From: Nitrososphaerota archaeon
GTDB lineage: Archaea; Thermoproteota; Nitrososphaeria; PSMU01
Reading direction: 5' to 3'
DNA: 64,000 nucleotides
NCBI GenBank assembly: GCA_040290255.1
Contig: PSMU01000001.1
Span: 320,001 to 384,000, forward strand
Of the stretch, positions 43,357-55,979 are shown in pieces (position 1 is the stretch's first letter; each line of letters opens with the position of its first letter). Made by a program: the position numbers and the translations under genes. The notes beneath the pieces are model-generated. The model saw only the letters and a program-made list of their open reading frames with translations, was not told the origin of the DNA and made no database searches.

Positions 43357-43382
43357 GGCACTTGCACCTGTTGTTGGGCAAC
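43322..43382. promoter_or_regulatory. Divergent promoter with palindrome and direct repeat
   Basis: TGTTGCGCA-tct-TGCGCAACA at 43325-43345; TGTTGTTG(C/G)GCA at 43322 and 43369; TATA-like 'atttataag'. Confidence 0.5.
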
Positions 43383-43403
43383 TTGAACAACCAAATAAAG
43401 CTT

Positions 43404-44351
43404 ATGGCCGTCCTTGACCCTCCTCTCCCCTTCAACGCGGGCCTGGAGGAGCTGGTGAAGGCGGAGGTGATCTTCCTGAGGGGGGAGCAGGAGCCCGAGC
43501 CGCTCTTCGCGGCGCAGGGGGGGCCTCTCTTTCGCCGCGTTTCGGGCGAGGGCAGGGGCGCCCGGGTGGCGGCCGTCGACTCCTCCTGCAGGAGGATAGG
43601 CGAGACGCTCAGGGGCACCATCTACGCCACAAGGGTCGCCTGCGTGCTCTGCCGCGAGAAGAAGGTGCTGGGCCACATGAGGCTGGGCCCCTTCCTGAGT
43701 TACCTGACCGACGATATGCTGGCCAGGCTCGCGCGCCCGCTGCCGCTGCAGGATCTGCTGGCGGTGGACCCAGGCTTTGCTGAGAGGTTCCTGAGGCGCA
43801 TGGCGGAGAGGTGGCTGCAGCGCCAGCTGGTGTTGGAAGGGGAGCTGGACTACTTGCTAATCGATGGTCCGCTGACCTTTCCCCTGCCCGAGCCCCCGCC
43901 CTATGGCCTGAGGGCGCTGCTCGATGAGGCCAGGAAGAGGGGCACGGCGCTTTTGGGCCTATCGAAGACGACGCGCCTCAGGGCGCTGATGAAGGCCCTC
44001 TCTTATCTGGGCCGCGCTGAAGATGCGCCCTGCTACATGAAGGTGAGGGAGCCGGATGCGGGGGCCATAGCCACCTACGTGGTGCGCCTCACCAAGGGGG
44101 GCGAGTGCTTCAGGCTGGACCTGGATGAGCGGGCCTGCACGATCGAAGGGGCGCTGCTGGACCTGAGGCGCAACGATGCCCTGACCGCGGGCTATCCGGA
44201 GGGGCTCCGGCTAGCCCATCACCTCTGCGTCATAGGCGACGTGGATATGGCCTCGGTGGCAAGCTACATCATGGCCAAGCTGGGCGCCCAGCAGGTCTCC
44301 TTCCTGCCGAGGAGAAGGCTGCTCCTCCCCGTGCCGGGGCCCAGGGCATGA
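43404..44351 (+). CDS. NurA-family nuclease
   Basis: AAVDSS, LLIDGPL, GLSKTT and GYPEGLRLAHH motifs. Confidence 0.85.
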   Translation: MAVLDPPLPFNAGLEELVKAEVIFLRGEQEPEPLFAAQGGPLFRRVSGEGRGARVAAVDSSCRRIGETLRGTIYATRVACVLCREKKVLGHMRLGPFLSYLTDDMLARLARPLPLQDLLAVDPGFAERFLRRMAERWLQRQLVLEGELDYLLIDGPLTFPLPEPPPYGLRALLDEARKRGTALLGLSKTTRLRALMKALSYLGRAEDAPCYMKVREPDAGAIATYVVRLTKGGECFRLDLDERACTIEGALLDLRRNDALTAGYPEGLRLAHHLCVIGDVDMASVASYIMAKLGAQQVSFLPRRRLLLPVPGPRA

Positions 44352-45799
44352 AGCTGCTGCAGAAGAGGGGCGATGAAGTGCTCCTGCTCTGCTCGCCGCG
44401 GGAGGAGGTGAGCCTGGGCGAGTACCTCTCGGTGAGCGATGGCGGGGGAAGGGCGCTGATCGTCCAGGCCTATGAGCAGTCATACCTCGAGTACCCGGGC
44501 ATGCTGGAGGAGCTGGTGAGGGAGGAGATCGTGGAGTCGCTGGGCCAGGGCGAGGAGCGGGATCCCCTGGAGATAAGGAACTTCAACCAGCTGCTCAGGG
44601 ACCTAAAGCTGGTGAGGTGCAAGGTGAGGGGCGTGCTGAGCGGCGGCAGGCTGAGCCTGGAGGCGGGCTGGCTTCCATCCAGGTCGAGGGCGCTGGTGAG
44701 GAGAGTGAGCATGCCCGAGCTGCTCCGCGCCCAGGGCGTGCAGAGCCGGAGGCCGCTGAAGCTGGGCGAGGCCCAGGGGGAGGAGCACTCCATCTGCTGG
44801 GAGGACCTGGATGGCAAGCTCACGCTCATCCTGGGCAGGAAGGAGACGGGCAAGTCGCACCTGGCCAAGCTGCTGGCGACGGGCCTTGTCCAGGCCGGCG
44901 CGGGCGTGCTCGTCTTCGACATCAACAACGAGTACCTGGCCCTGACCAAGGCGGAGGAGCTGGAGGGCCGGGCCCAGGCGCTCACGCCCTCCTCGAGCCT
45001 GCTCTTTTCGCTTCAGGGCCTGGGCCTCGGCGTCATGGTCAGGATCGTGGAATGGGCCCTCGAGACGCCCGCCATTTCGGTAAGGGAGTTCGCGCGCCTC
45101 TGGAGGGCCTGTGAGGCCGAGGGCCGGCTCACGCTCGATGCCCTGCTCGAGAGGGCCGAGCAGGCGCGCATGAACGAACACGTGAGGGAGGCGCTGGTAT
45201 CGAGGCTGCTGGCGCTCAGGGGCTCCAGGCTCTTCTCTGAATGGCCTAAGCCTCCGGAGCTCTCCTCGCTCTTCTACCGGGAGGGCGGGCAGCTGACCGT
45301 GCTCGCGCTGAGGCACCTGAGCAGGCTCCAGAGGCGCATCCTCGTGGAGGCGCTGCTGGGCAAGGCCCTGGAACTGCTGAGCCTGGAGCGCATCCCGCCC
45401 ATCTTTGTCCTCGCGGAGGAGGCCCACCTGTATTTGGGCGAGACGCACTGGGACGACCTGATCACCAGGATGAGGCACTACGGCATCTTCCCCATCTTCG
45501 TCACCAACCAGCCCGACGCGGTGCCCGAGACGGTATACCGGCAGCTGGACAACCTTTTCCTCTTCAACGTGAATAGCGAGAGGGATGTCGAGCGCATCAG
45601 CGCCTGCCTGGGGCTCGATGCGCAGTCCACGGCGGCCATAGCCAAGGGCCTCCCGATGGGCCACTGCCTCATCGTGGGCCTCGCCTCCCATGGCCTGCCG
45701 GTGGTGAGCAGGATAAGATCGCTGGGGGCGGAGGCGGGCGGCGCCACCCGCAGCTTCCTGGCATGGCAGCAAAAGGCTATTAAGCAAAGCACCTCGTAG
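44348..45799 (+). CDS. HerA/FtsK-family ATPase
   Basis: N-terminal HAS-like barrel, GRKETGKS, FDINNEY, EEAH, RMRHYG and TNQP. Confidence 0.88.
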   Translation: MKLLQKRGDEVLLLCSPREEVSLGEYLSVSDGGGRALIVQAYEQSYLEYPGMLEELVREEIVESLGQGEERDPLEIRNFNQLLRDLKLVRCKVRGVLSGGRLSLEAGWLPSRSRALVRRVSMPELLRAQGVQSRRPLKLGEAQGEEHSICWEDLDGKLTLILGRKETGKSHLAKLLATGLVQAGAGVLVFDINNEYLALTKAEELEGRAQALTPSSSLLFSLQGLGLGVMVRIVEWALETPAISVREFARLWRACEAEGRLTLDALLERAEQARMNEHVREALVSRLLALRGSRLFSEWPKPPELSSLFYREGGQLTVLALRHLSRLQRRILVEALLGKALELLSLERIPPIFVLAEEAHLYLGETHWDDLITRMRHYGIFPIFVTNQPDAVPETVYRQLDNLFLFNVNSERDVERISACLGLDAQSTAAIAKGLPMGHCLIVGLASHGLPVVSRIRSLGAEAGGATRSFLAWQQKAIKQSTS

Positions 45800-51814: not shown

Positions 51815-52180
51815 TTATCCTTTTCCCGAGGCCAGCGCGAGGAGCAGCGAGAGCGCGAGCAGCGCTGCCAGCGCCACCGAGATGCCGCCGTATGCGATGG
51901 CGATAAGATAGGCCCCCAGGGCCCCGAAGGAGAGGAAGGCCACGGCCTGGTAGAGGTGCGCCAGCAGGCTAGTTGCCAGCGTGGAGATGATGAGCGCTCG
52001 CCAGCGCTCGTTCATCTTTCCCTTCCTCACCAGGGCGTAGAGCGAGAGCAATGAGGCGGCGCTGAGCGCCAGCAGCCTGGCGCCGCCCTGGCCCAGGAGC
52101 ACCGCGATGGCCCAAAAGGCTGCGTTGGCCAGGAGCGAGGCCAGCAGCAGATGAAGCCCCCTCACGCCCCTCCTGGGCAA
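51815..52180 (-). CDS. Hypothetical four-TM membrane protein
   Basis: Hydrophobic 121-aa ORF divergent from the secreted-protein operon. Confidence 0.6.
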   Translation of the reverse strand: MPRRGVRGLHLLLASLLANAAFWAIAVLLGQGGARLLALSAASLLSLYALVRKGKMNERWRALIISTLATSLLAHLYQAVAFLSFGALGAYLIAIAYGGISVALAALLALSLLLALASGKG

Positions 52181-52356
52181 TCCCTGTTAAAAGCTGCTGC
52201 GGTGGCCGGCATGTGCCGGAGCGATCGTCCAAAAAAAAGGGAATATAGGGCACAAAATTGACCAAGAGGGGTTCTAAGAGCCGGGAAGTGCTGTCCCCTT
52301 AACTTGGAATCCTTTGCGTTAAGCCTAATATCATATGCTCCCGGGGGCCGTTAGGC

Positions 52357-52803
52357 TTGGAGCGTAGGCTAAGGACCAAACTGGTGGCCGCAGTTCTTCC
52401 TCTGCTAATCCTCCTAGGGGCAAGCGCCGCGTATGCCGTGACCATATCTCTCAGCAGCTCTAACGTAATGCCGATAGGGGGCACGGGACTCGTTACCGTG
52501 AATTGCCCAGCACAACCCTGCGCGGTGAGCAAAGTAACTTGGACGCTGGACACCTCACCTCCCTTCTACGTAGCCAGCGCAACCGTGTCCTGGACGCCCA
52601 GCCAAGATGGAGACTACCAGGTCTGCGTAAACCTCTATGGTAGCGATGGCAACCCGCTCAATAATGGAAGCGGCTGCATCACCAAACGCTTACCTGGAGG
52701 CACGGCTACAAGTACCACCGTGCCCTTCTCTGGGACGGGCTCGTCGAGGCCAAACCCAAGGGATATCTATAAGGTGGAAGTGATAATAGTCCAGACTCCT
52801 TGA
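52357..52803 (+). CDS. Secreted small beta-rich protein, putative major fibre subunit
   Basis: Signal peptide ending AAYA; mature N-terminus VTISLSSSNVMPIGGTGLV; 4 Cys; Thr/Ser/Val-rich; no C-terminal anchor. Confidence 0.7.
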   Translation: MERRLRTKLVAAVLPLLILLGASAAYAVTISLSSSNVMPIGGTGLVTVNCPAQPCAVSKVTWTLDTSPPFYVASATVSWTPSQDGDYQVCVNLYGSDGNPLNNGSGCITKRLPGGTATSTTVPFSGTGSSRPNPRDIYKVEVIIVQTP

Positions 52804-53180
52804 GAAGACTTTTTTTGCTGCTGCTTCTCTCAATTATCTTAGCCCCGGCCTACGCGCTCTTAATAAGCCCCGTAAATGTCCAGCCCGCCGAAGGCATAAG
52901 GGTGGACCTCACGCGCCCCCTCAACAGCTGCTTTGAAGTAAAGGGGCTCGCCTTTTCCTTCAGCGCCACGTCCATAACCTCCGTCACGATAACGGTTTTT
53001 AACACATGCAACTCTCGAGAAACGGCGGATGTCTTGATTACCTGGTACCTAAGGGATGGGAGCTCTTTACAGACTCATATGACCATTCAGGTGCCCGGGC
53101 TGGGAACCAAGGCTGGCTCCGCCGCTTTATCCAACCCCATTCCCTTCGCCTCCCTGATTAAGGTGGTCGTGAATGTCTAG
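52800..53180 (+). CDS. Secreted small beta-rich protein, putative minor fibre subunit
   Basis: Signal peptide ending PAYA; 2 Cys; C-terminal strand SLIKVVVNV; TTGA overlap with the previous stop. Confidence 0.65.
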   Translation: MRRLFLLLLLSIILAPAYALLISPVNVQPAEGIRVDLTRPLNSCFEVKGLAFSFSATSITSVTITVFNTCNSRETADVLITWYLRDGSSLQTHMTIQVPGLGTKAGSAALSNPIPFASLIKVVVNV

Positions 53181-53616
53181 AACTAGGACTTCGGCCGCGC
53201 TGTTCTTCGCGGGCCTGCTGCTCTTATTGATGGCCACCCCCTATGAGGCCTTCTCATCCCTGCTTGCCATCTCCACCATTAGGCCGGTGGGGGGCTCCGG
53301 CCTTGTACCCGTGCCCAAGGACGGCGTGCTGATGATCCGCATAAGCCTAAGCATGGGGGGAAACCTGGCCGATGATCGCATAAATCGGTTAGATATAGCG
53401 CTGCGGGCCTCGGACCCCAGCTACTCCTGCCCCGGCGGCTCGCGGTGTTATACGCTCGCCTATACGCTATATCTGGATAACTCCCTTTCGAGCTCCCGCA
53501 GCCGCGCCGTTTCGGTAACCACTACGGCAACTACAATCACCTTCAGCTTTTCTCCGCTTAATCAGGCCGGCGCGCAAAACCTCTCCATAATAATTAACGT
53601 GGTGAGAAGTTCATGA
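53173..53616 (+). CDS. Secreted small beta-rich protein, putative minor/tip fibre subunit
   Basis: Signal peptide; PVGGSGLV matches PIGGTGLV of 52357; Cys pair; C-terminal strand NLSIIINVV. Confidence 0.65.
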   Translation: MSRTRTSAALFFAGLLLLLMATPYEAFSSLLAISTIRPVGGSGLVPVPKDGVLMIRISLSMGGNLADDRINRLDIALRASDPSYSCPGGSRCYTLAYTLYLDNSLSSSRSRAVSVTTTATTITFSFSPLNQAGAQNLSIIINVVRSS

Positions 53617-54053
53617 TGAAGCGCGAGGCCTTCCTCCTCGGCATGGGCCTTCTCCTAACGGCCTATGGCGGCTATGGGCTGGCGCAGCGCCTCACGCTCT
53701 ACTATGTAGCCTCTGGCTCCATGGAGCCCTACTTGCCCACAGGGAGCTTAATATTGGTTGAGCGCGGCGCCGTGCCCGCGGCCGGCGACATAGCGCTAGT
53801 GAACTATTACGGTGAGCCGCTCGTGCATAGGGTCGTGCGGGTAGACCCGAGCTCGGGCATAATATGGCTTACCGCCGACGCGCAGCCGGGCTTCGTTCAG
53901 CAAGCAAAGCTGAGGGATTTAATCGGCGTCGTCGTCCTGGCATTGCCCTACTTTGGCTATATGGCCATGCTTGCAAGGGCTTACCCCTGGCTTACTACAG
54001 CTATGCTGGGAGCGCTTATATCGCTAATCCTATTGAGGTGGATTAAGGGGTGA
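53613..54053 (+). CDS. Signal peptidase I, ER/SipW type (S26)
   Basis: N-terminal TM, VASGSMEP (Ser), GD, VHRV (His), IGVV...PYFGY and C-terminal TM. Confidence 0.88.
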   Translation: MMKREAFLLGMGLLLTAYGGYGLAQRLTLYYVASGSMEPYLPTGSLILVERGAVPAAGDIALVNYYGEPLVHRVVRVDPSSGIIWLTADAQPGFVQQAKLRDLIGVVVLALPYFGYMAMLARAYPWLTTAMLGALISLILLRWIKG

Positions 54054-55330
54054 GGAGGCCCCTCAAGGCGCTCCTTACGCTCGCGCTGCTCTTTCCCCTA
54101 CTTGCTCATCCCTCCCATGCCATCGCTTCGGTGACCGTCGACGTCCCCTTTCAAATATCAGCCACGCTTGATGGAAGGCCGCTGCTGATAAGCGGCGCGG
54201 CGCAGGTCTCCGGCACGCTGTGCCTGCCCCTGCTCGTGTACGCTTCTCCTCTAGAGCGCTATGCCTTCGAGGGCTGGTATGTTAATGCCACGCGCATCTC
54301 AACGGGCTCCTGCCTAAGCGTAAGCGAGGGCAGCTACCTGGCGCACTACAAGCCGCAGTTCCTGGTGGGCCTGGCCTCGGATCCGCCGGGCCTCCTCTCG
54401 ACGAGCCTTTGGGCAAATGCGAGCGAGCCCACGCCCATTTCCCTTCCGACGCAGATAGAGCGAGAAGGGGTGAGGGCCAGGCTTATCGCCGCTTACTTCA
54501 ACGGATATCCCCTTCCAATAATAAACGGGAGCATCGTCATAGGCGTAAGGGCCCCAGCCCTAATAACCCTGGCCTATGAGAAGTTCGTGAGGATAACCAT
54601 CATGGGCCCTAACTTCACGCGAGAGCTCTGGGCCAGGGCCGGAGCGCCGATAGCCCTACCGCTTCCTGATTATGTGCCCGTAGCCGAGGGCGCAAGATTA
54701 CGGCTGGTCGCAGCGTATGCTGGGCAGACAGAGATAGGCCGAACCTACATACCCGGCGAGCCCGTGCTCATAGCCGCGGCCTATGTAAGGCAATATTATG
54801 TGAGGGTAAGCTCGCCCCAGGGGGCTTTAGTTGAGGGCTGGTATGATGAAGGCACTCAGCTCAGTATATCCGCGCCTGAGATGATAAGCATGGGCCCCGG
54901 CAGGAGGCTGGCCTTCCTGGGCTGGAGCGGCATAAACTACACGGGCAGCAGCCTCGGCTTAACTGTACGGGCTCCGATCAACGCCACGGCCCTGTACGAG
55001 CTCCAGGTGGAGGTTCAGCTAATGACTCCCCTGGGAACTTCGAGCTACTGGATAGGAGCGGGGAAGACGATGGCCCTCAGCCTGCCCACCTCCCTTCCCG
55101 CCTCCCTCGGCTTCGTCAGAAGCCTGGTGGGCGTAACGATGAATGGAAAGAGCCTGCCAGTAGATAAGGGCATAATCATGGTTACCCCCCTCGAGCCCTC
55201 GATGGTGGTGGCGCAGTATTCGCTCTCACTGGACCCTCAGGGCCTCCTAATACTTGCAGGGATTGGGCTGCTCATTTCGGCGCTTTACCTCGGCCTGAGC
55301 AGGGCCAAGAAGAGGGAGAAGCCCGATTAG
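54050..55330 (+). CDS. Membrane-anchored cell-surface repeat glycoprotein
   Basis: Signal peptide; repeated beta modules (RYAFEGW, YYVRVSSP..EGWYDEG, RLAFLGWSG); six N-x-S/T sequons; C-terminal TM with basic tail. Confidence 0.75.
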   Translation: MRRPLKALLTLALLFPLLAHPSHAIASVTVDVPFQISATLDGRPLLISGAAQVSGTLCLPLLVYASPLERYAFEGWYVNATRISTGSCLSVSEGSYLAHYKPQFLVGLASDPPGLLSTSLWANASEPTPISLPTQIEREGVRARLIAAYFNGYPLPIINGSIVIGVRAPALITLAYEKFVRITIMGPNFTRELWARAGAPIALPLPDYVPVAEGARLRLVAAYAGQTEIGRTYIPGEPVLIAAAYVRQYYVRVSSPQGALVEGWYDEGTQLSISAPEMISMGPGRRLAFLGWSGINYTGSSLGLTVRAPINATALYELQVEVQLMTPLGTSSYWIGAGKTMALSLPTSLPASLGFVRSLVGVTMNGKSLPVDKGIIMVTPLEPSMVVAQYSLSLDPQGLLILAGIGLLISALYLGLSRAKKREKPD

Positions 55331-55430: not shown

Positions 55431-55979
55431 CTACCTGGAGGCCAGCTGGCCGGAGAGCAGCAGCCCCCAGGCGAGCACCGGATAGACGATCATCCTCTCG
55501 ATCCCTCCCCTGCCCAGGCCCAGGTCCACGTTGGCCAGGAAGAGCAGCAGCGAGAGCAGGCTGAGGAGGCCCAGCAGCAGATGTAGCGGCCTTAGGGCCG
55601 GGGGCGAGATGCGATACGAGGAGAGCGCGGCCAGCCCCGAGAAGAGGAAGGCGATGAGCGAGAAGAGGCCATGTAAGAGGCCGAAGCGCTCGTTGAAGAG
55701 GCCCACGCCCAGGGCGCCTATGCCCGCGAGCGCGAGCAGCAGCCTAAAGATCCTGCCGTAGCCTTCGCCCAGCCAGTAGCTGCCCGCCAGCACGAGCAGG
55801 CCCAGCAGCGAGACCGAGCCGTTGAAGGCCCAGGCGGAGGGGCCCACGCCCAGGTCGCTGATGAAGTTCTGGGAGACGCTGTAGTCCGGATAGAGGGCCT
55901 CCGCGGCCAGCAGGCCCAGCAGCAGGAACTGGATCACGCCCACCGAGAAGGCAAGGGAGGCAAGGTGCACCCTGTTCAT
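55431..55979 (-). CDS. DUF998 family membrane protein
   Basis: AEALYPDYSVSQNFISDLG, GVGLF.E, LH and GGIERMIVYP. Confidence 0.85.
   Translation of the reverse strand: MNRVHLASLAFSVGVIQFLLLGLLAAEALYPDYSVSQNFISDLGVGPSAWAFNGSVSLLGLLVLAGSYWLGEGYGRIFRLLLALAGIGALGVGLFNERFGLLHGLFSLIAFLFSGLAALSSYRISPPALRPLHLLLGLLSLLSLLLFLANVDLGLGRGGIERMIVYPVLAWGLLLSGQLASR

Follow-up and report, generated by a model that had tools for sequence, protein, structure and literature searches.

Research on donor-strand fibres of archaea is still young, and the examples known to date have been placed in the TasA superfamily. The abpX loci of Thermoproteota carry a signal peptidase (SPase) together with minor, tip and accessory genes (bioRxiv 10.64898/2026.01.04.697558), and in the Tafi system deletion of TafD blocks both TafA processing and the formation of fimbriae (PMC11821415). 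We analysed a 64,000-nucleotide window of a Nitrososphaerota archaeon (GenBank assembly GCA_040290255.1, contig PSMU01000001.1, positions 320,001 to 384,000 of the forward strand; genome of 1.2 Mb, 91% complete, termed G000) that contains five adjoining genes, named here A, B, C, S and M (Table 1). We consider it likely that these genes specify a donor-strand fimbria that needs no chaperone and has A as its shaft. A preliminary description of the same DNA had called the operon undescribed, which holds for the subunit family; the operon logic is published for AbpX and Tafi. Since the archaeal AbpX and Tafi loci on record include a dedicated peptidase, minor subunits and an anchor, this kind of system is already known, and what is new here is an unnamed family of small, probably immunoglobulin (Ig)-like subunits associated with an InlB-repeat stalk.

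Our locus resembles AbpX in its Sec/signal peptidase I (SPI) subunit, amphipathic N-terminal donor strand, co-encoded SPase I, and minor and tip paralogues (bioRxiv 10.64898/2026.01.04.697558). AbpX is described with an aromatic-2/acidic-4 motif, an isoelectric point (pI) of about 4, a mature chain of 163 amino acids (aa), a ten-transmembrane SPase and DUF5305, whereas mature A starts with V-T-I-S-L, has 121 aa, a pI of 6.2 and 5% Asp plus Glu, and S has 146 aa. Neither the AbpX motif nor a ten-transmembrane peptidase was found here, and DUF5305 was absent from the locus and from the 91%-complete genome. AbpX was the top Protein Data Bank (PDB) match of A when a single sequence was searched (E 0.1), but we treat that match as chance because it was lost with the 36- and 84-row profiles. 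Tafi and taf-like systems share with our locus the major, adaptor and tip subunits, a required dedicated S26 peptidase, strand donation, and a membrane protein in one cluster (PMC11821415; PMC12337348). Tafi differs in its Tat export (Sec in Thermococcales and Archaeoglobales), two-domain, four-transmembrane TafD, DUF5305 protein TafG and subunit-like TafF anchor, whereas S has one domain and M is a beta-grasp repeat stalk; searches of the locus for DUF1102, TafA/E, the TafD architecture and DUF5305 found none of them.

The Bacillus tapA-sipW-tasA operon likewise combines an operon-encoded Ser-His type peptidase with a donor-strand polymer (PMC9245690). However, the PF12389 model, with 196 positions, is much longer than A, and no TapA is present here; neither PF12389 nor a SipW-cognate signal family matched any of 36 A members (E<=0.1) or any protein of the genome. 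Pyrobaculum AbpA, the Sulfolobus thread protein Saci_0406 and Pyrodictium CanA/CanX are also SPI-processed, beta-rich donor-strand subunits, but they are described as jelly-rolls, and the available parts of the sources present the AbpA and CanX loci without a dedicated SPase (PMC9245690; PMC12518558; PMC12337348). Profile searches of the PDB with A returned no TasA, AbpA, AbpX, CanA or thread sequence, although the papers link those families by HHsearch of profile databases instead. In the fold searches of A, no TasA, AbpA, AbpX, CanA, thread or Tafi chain was among the matches listed, a result that does not exclude these families. The relationship to TasA and AbpA proposed in the preliminary description was thus not recovered in the 36 members, the genome or the PDB profile searches. 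In chaperone-usher (type 1/P) pili and the Pam pili of the Candidate Phyla Radiation, an incomplete Ig-like fold is completed by an N-terminal extension (PMC9715654; PMC13278184), as we predict for A; our locus differs in having a dedicated SPase and no chaperone or usher gene.

Table 1. Features of the locus, in positions of the 64,000-nucleotide window.
Feature	Position	Strand	Description
A	52357-52803	+	148 aa, TTG start; putative major fibre subunit
A mature N-terminal arm	52438..52500	+	Conserved; low pLDDT in the monomer model; pairs with the neighbour in the model
A last strand (mature 110-118)	52765..52791	+	Predicted donor-strand partner in the lowest-error model pairs
B	52800-53180	+	126 aa, TTG start; divergent paralogue, putative minor subunit
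C	53173-53616	+	147 aa, ATG start; paralogue bearing the arm motif, putative minor subunit
S	53613-54053	+	146 aa, ATG start; second S26 signal peptidase
M	54050-55330	+	426 aa, GTG start; secreted repeat stalk with C-terminal membrane helix

The five-gene operon is real and conserved. Among 401 genomes of the phylum, the order A-B-C-S-M was intact in six others (G066, G058, G090, G279, G187 and G159) and cut or rearranged in nine more, and this retention of the gene set makes the association more than chance. Contig ends interrupt it in G261, G201, G194, G255, G166 and G180 (B-C-S-M); G201 and G194, both cut in this way, have A and no strong M. In G145 M is inverted, G309 carries four subunit genes followed by S-M, and G014 has the order A-S-M, with A as its sole subunit. 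In addition, G321 and G391 show S-M or M at a contig start. All five reading frames and their positions agreed with the preliminary description, and the overlapping stop/start codons it reported are present as 4-bp overlaps at three of the four junctions (A/B TTGA, C/S ATGA, S/M GTGA), while B and C overlap by 8 bp. A profile of the A family (A2) matched 25 of the 401 genomes including G000, with strong matches in 13 of the others, and none of 60 sampled classmates.

As proposed at the outset, A, B and C proved to be paralogous members of a single unnamed family: profile-profile comparisons gave 98.9, 98.9 and 98.5% (signal peptides included). Each has a single hydrophobic stretch, at the N-terminus, ending in AYA|V (A), AYA|L (B) or AFS|S (C), and an A/V/S-Y/F-A/S-like motif occupies the putative cleavage site in most orthologues; cleavage sites were read from motif and hydropathy. 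Ser, Thr and Val make up 29-32% of the three proteins, which contain four (A), two (B) and two (C) cysteines, in keeping with the secreted, anchorless proteins first described. By its motif, the signal peptide of A spans residues 1-27, leaving a mature chain predicted to consist of a 21-residue arm and an Ig-like sandwich. Homologue P0001 matches A with 76% identity from residue 1 onwards, which supports the TTG start. The tree of 42 subunits placed the A sequences on one side of a branch (93/91), and the window's B and C were long branches, with B assigned by position. Mean identity over 10 genomes was 0.56 for A, 0.34 for B and 0.38 for C; B lacks the GGTG hinge and C retains the arm motif GG(T/S)G-x-V-x-V. 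A is therefore the best conserved subunit and, in G014, the only one, which agrees with its proposed role as the major subunit.

Searching 1.84 billion representative sequences with A gave 61 matches at E<=0.001, of which 35 of similar length were kept (long repeat proteins and fragments were dropped) for a 36-row profile; an 84-row profile was also used. The source names of homologues were Nitrososphaerota, Ca. Caldarchaeum, Desulfurococcales, Ignisphaera and Chloroflexota. Pfam and NCBIfam had no family for A, B or C, and open-access full text held no description of the family, although homologue lists in supplements could include members. In the ESM Atlas, the clusters closest to A were unnamed 137-146-aa proteins, mostly from Actinomycetota (score 0.93-0.94), which we regard as a lead only; no useful named match was found there. 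PDB matches of A to MS2 coat protein and antibodies were rejected as artefacts of the GGTG motif or the signal peptide.

The mature N-terminus of A follows the pattern V-x-I-x-L...V..[LI]-G-G-T-G-x-V-x-V-x-C-P in the 84-row alignment, where positions 1, 3, 5, 10, 13, 19 and 21 are hydrophobic in 88-100% of ungapped rows. The monomer was modelled as an Ig-like sandwich (predicted local distance difference test, pLDDT, 86), with 51-68 in the arm blocks against 92-95 in the core. When three copies were modelled together the score was 0.60, compared with 0.00 for the best of three controls, with at least 72% contact agreement between runs and partner pLDDT of at least 82. The score mark was reached by 20 of 30 proteins whose solved structure is a pair of one chain and by 1 of 23 solved as single chains, a benchmark that is only rough for A, which was modelled from its own alignment and in three copies. 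The lowest-error pairs joined residues 110-116 of copy 2 to residues 15-21 of copy 3 in antiparallel register. Thus, the models predict that the arm of A completes its neighbour's sheet head to tail, with residues 15-21 as the donor strand, in line with the polymerising interface first proposed. For copy 2 the acceptor was residues 30-44, and copy 3 had no listed residues between 22 and 60; in our reading, this gap fits an open-ended chain rather than a ring.

It is unlikely that A, B and C instead form a short fixed hetero-oligomer, a closed oligomer or a lattice (an adhesin head or S-layer accessory) on or beside M. Three paralogues of similar size in a translationally coupled operon would suit such an assembly, as would the monomer model, in which the arm folds partly back on itself, and M as a typical surface stalk. 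Against it, the three-copy model of A is open-ended, G014 has a single subunit with S and M, and a bacterial-type metagenome locus (L056) has at least six paralogue-like genes in a row, three of them nearly alike, and a seventh that is truncated where the sequence stops.

With regard to the peptidase, S belongs to the S24/S26 class (PF00717, 28.5 bits; cut-off 23.3), and its Ser36, His72, Arg73 and Asp89 are invariant, so that the catalytic Ser/His/Asp are kept. It scored 33.9 bits with the archaeal SPase I model TIGR02228 (under the cut-off of 51.85) and 25.4 with Bacillus SipW NF046067 (far under the cut-off of 190). The earlier label of a SipW-type S26 Ser-His peptidase is therefore good as a class label only, the S26 Ser/His assignment being sound and membership of the SipW family not. 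A second SPase, above the TIGR02228 cut-off, lies at G000:C3:15993-16409, which makes S an extra peptidase besides the housekeeping enzyme, as had been proposed. The motif xAD replaces KGD in 13 of 16 operon-type copies of S, while KGD is found in the housekeeping enzyme and in four Nitrosopumilus-type copies. Of the 13 other genomes with strong A matches, 11 have S downstream of the subunit genes on one contig; in the remaining two the contig ends, and S adjoins C or M on another contig. By analogy with TafD, we infer that S cleaves A, B and C. The preliminary description had said that it would fall if the subunits modelled as monomeric folds only, if the gene set were not conserved, or if S were the sole housekeeping SPase; the three-copy model, the synteny and the second SPase each point the other way.

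Taken as a fimbria, the locus could work as follows. A, B and C would be exported by Sec and retained by their signal peptides until S, rather than the housekeeping SPase, cuts after AxA/AxS and frees the hydrophobic arm, so that cleavage by S would tie release to assembly. In the model, residues 15-21 of one A then form an antiparallel pair with the final strand of the following copy, completing its Ig-like sandwich, and arm residues 1-7 appear to reach the next-but-one subunit. Because an open groove is left at one end, the chain could grow. A would form the shaft, and B and C would be minor subunits acting as adaptor, tip or terminator. M might be a stalk held in the membrane, anchoring or nucleating the fibre through non-strand contact, or a co-displayed adhesin; this role is weakly inferred, from co-occurrence. 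Surface attachment or biofilm formation would be a likely use.

Archaeal type IV pilins also have an Ig-like head, and the head family of A is common to class-III-pilin-like proteins of related archaea, but in A a cleaved SPI signal followed by a beta arm would take the place of the retained N-terminal helix. No class III signal (by sequence and motif scan), prepilin peptidase or ATPase was found in the locus, and the motif scan and reading frames here bear out the preliminary description. We consider it improbable that A, B and C are soluble type IV pilus add-ons (tip or decoration) dependent on the genome's pilus ATPase, considering that they lack a class III site, that the linked peptidase is S26 and not a prepilin peptidase, that inspection of the loci, by eye rather than by family scan, recognised no type IV pilus gene beside those of the subunits, and that A is missing from many genomes with class III proteins. 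Least probable of all is that these are unrelated secreted proteins without a shared structure on a mobile cassette, with S a redundant general peptidase: the patchy spread (0/60 classmates with profile A2), the different flanks in every genome and the low GC at third codon positions (GC3) would fit, but gene order is kept across several families, the same parts occur rearranged in Nitrosopumilus-type genomes, S carries its own xAD signature, and the self-association model of A passes.

Several results weigh against a donor-strand fimbria and need to be set beside those above. The fibre is predicted from genes and models. The complex score measures the confidence of the model in its own prediction, and its pass may mirror likeness to solved donor-strand fibres; the strand-donation model covers A-A contacts only. 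Moreover, the A head (mature residues about 27-121, without the arm) also occurs at the C-terminus of 380-aa class-III-pilin-like proteins (97.8%; 31-36 bits against at most 8.1 for a reversed-sequence null), which implies that the Ig-like fold alone does not mean polymerisation. Three T2SSE ATPases lie elsewhere in G000 (one on C4, the others on C2 and C5), so the fibre's description as ATPase-free holds for the locus and is extended to the fibre by inference. M, which had been taken as the base subunit of the polymer, consists of about five tandem beta-grasp, InlB B-repeat-like (Flg_new_2) units and a C-terminal membrane helix, and was modelled as a complete repeat stalk with no free N-terminal arm; it was accordingly rejected as a donor-strand base. 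It has six sequons, and its hydrophobic stretch spans residues 391-419. Full-length M orthologues (E<1e-100) are present in 14 other genomes, nine of which were used in building the profile, and weaker M-type repeats matched 153 of the 401 genomes, mostly without A. M is inverted in G145 and G321, and 25 kb separate it from A in G166.

The 380-aa proteins had no Pfam name, and the class III label is one we take from their N-terminal motif. Adjacent pairs of class-III-pilin-like genes with the A-type head occur at L048:6696-7844, L050:5820-6956, L051:4736-5887, L052:5676-6869, L068:1712-2800 and L069:2362-3525, and many genomes have such pairs without the fibre operon. G000 itself has a separate type IV pilus-like locus at G000:C4:53848-57739, with a T2SSE ATPase and a class-III pilin-like gene.

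Distant relatives of the family seem to occur in cultured marine ammonia oxidisers (Nitrosopumilus). A mixed A+B+C profile matched 38 of the 401 genomes, partly by construction, and located clusters of an M-like protein, subunits and an S26 peptidase in four classmates (G189, G251, G299 and G341; L070-L074). The three intact loci encode an M-like protein of about 1400 aa that has a long coiled-coil tail; in G341 it is split across contigs. The subunits are 128, 137 and about 150 aa, with a fourth reading frame of similar size, and show weaker links to A and B (69, 83 and 93%). Identical proteins are named from Nitrosopumilus zosterae, N. adriaticus and Nitrosopumilus sp. b3, all hypothetical, one of them auto-named 'Type IV pilin'. 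About 900 residues of the M-like protein are predicted to be a cytoplasmic coiled coil, and the clusters sit among response-regulator and kinase-like genes (read by eye). A gene near the G341 cluster is presumably archaellin-like, judged by its motif.

The locus adds a candidate subunit family without a Pfam or NCBIfam model, whose subunit is the smallest of the set and whose anchor is of another type, and the head domain common to A and type IV pilin-like proteins makes a link between two filament classes testable. A bolder reading, which we hold to be rather doubtful, is that this is a separate donor-strand lineage outside the TasA superfamily, in which an Ig-like head like that of type IV pilins acquired a cleaved signal and a long arm gripping two neighbours in place of the class III helix, and which was carried by transfer between hot-spring Thermoproteota, bacteria of the Chloroflexota type and cultured marine Nitrosopumilus. 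If so, Nitrosopumilus would hold an attachment fibre that has gone unrecognised, joined to a membrane stalk whose cytoplasmic coiled coil is very long. The probable relatives in the cultured N. adriaticus and N. zosterae offer a direct route to imaging and bear on surface attachment by ammonia-oxidising archaea. A 121-residue, possibly heat-stable, self-assembling subunit would also be of interest as a material.

The base composition of the operon suggests acquisition by transfer. Its GC content is 0.58, a value as low or lower in 10% of 795 3-kb windows of the genome, and the GC3 of its genes is 0.62-0.71, compared with 0.86-0.92 in seven neighbouring genes; it is the low GC3 relative to these neighbours that points to transfer. 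The flanking genes differ in every genome. Flanks like those of G000 were not recognised by eye at the other loci; they comprise a NurA-HerA pair (window 43362-45799), an unnamed 121-aa membrane protein divergent from A (51815-52180) and a convergent DUF998 gene downstream of M (55431-55979). A scan of the locus for sigma-70 promoters and terminators, a type ill-suited to archaea, found nothing; no flanking repeats were informative and no RNA holder was listed.

On the bacterial side, the Chloroflexota-type alignment search found two metagenome loci (one marginal genome locus was not used), and plasmids gave no match for P0110. Tandem runs of paralogue-like genes lie at L056:3967-7029 and in L055, probably on Chloroflexota contigs; in one member the N-terminus is extended by a long basic segment that contains a CxxC motif, and an FG-GAP/PKD surface protein is nearby. 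No peptidase was seen in 7,031 of the 8,905 bases of L056.

Single or partial A-like genes were observed at L049:6151-6878 (G384), L066:4033-4538 (G142) and L067:1121-1675 (G065), the one in G384 adjoining an S26 peptidase. At L063:1038-8822 (G029), an M-like protein (202 bits) clusters with three secreted proteins starting HWSD; AbpX was the only PDB match of the two that were searched (E 0.13-0.19), and InlB-repeat stalks may accompany AbpX-type fibres too. Weak M-type repeats also occur in a secreted protein of 1010 aa with a C-terminal anchor, encoded in G000 (G000:C3:204725-207757, minus strand). Lastly, an 8-bp inverted repeat (52321-52328 and 52351-52358, spacing 22 nucleotides), spotted by eye, has a right arm that overlaps the TTG start of A and is a possible regulator site.

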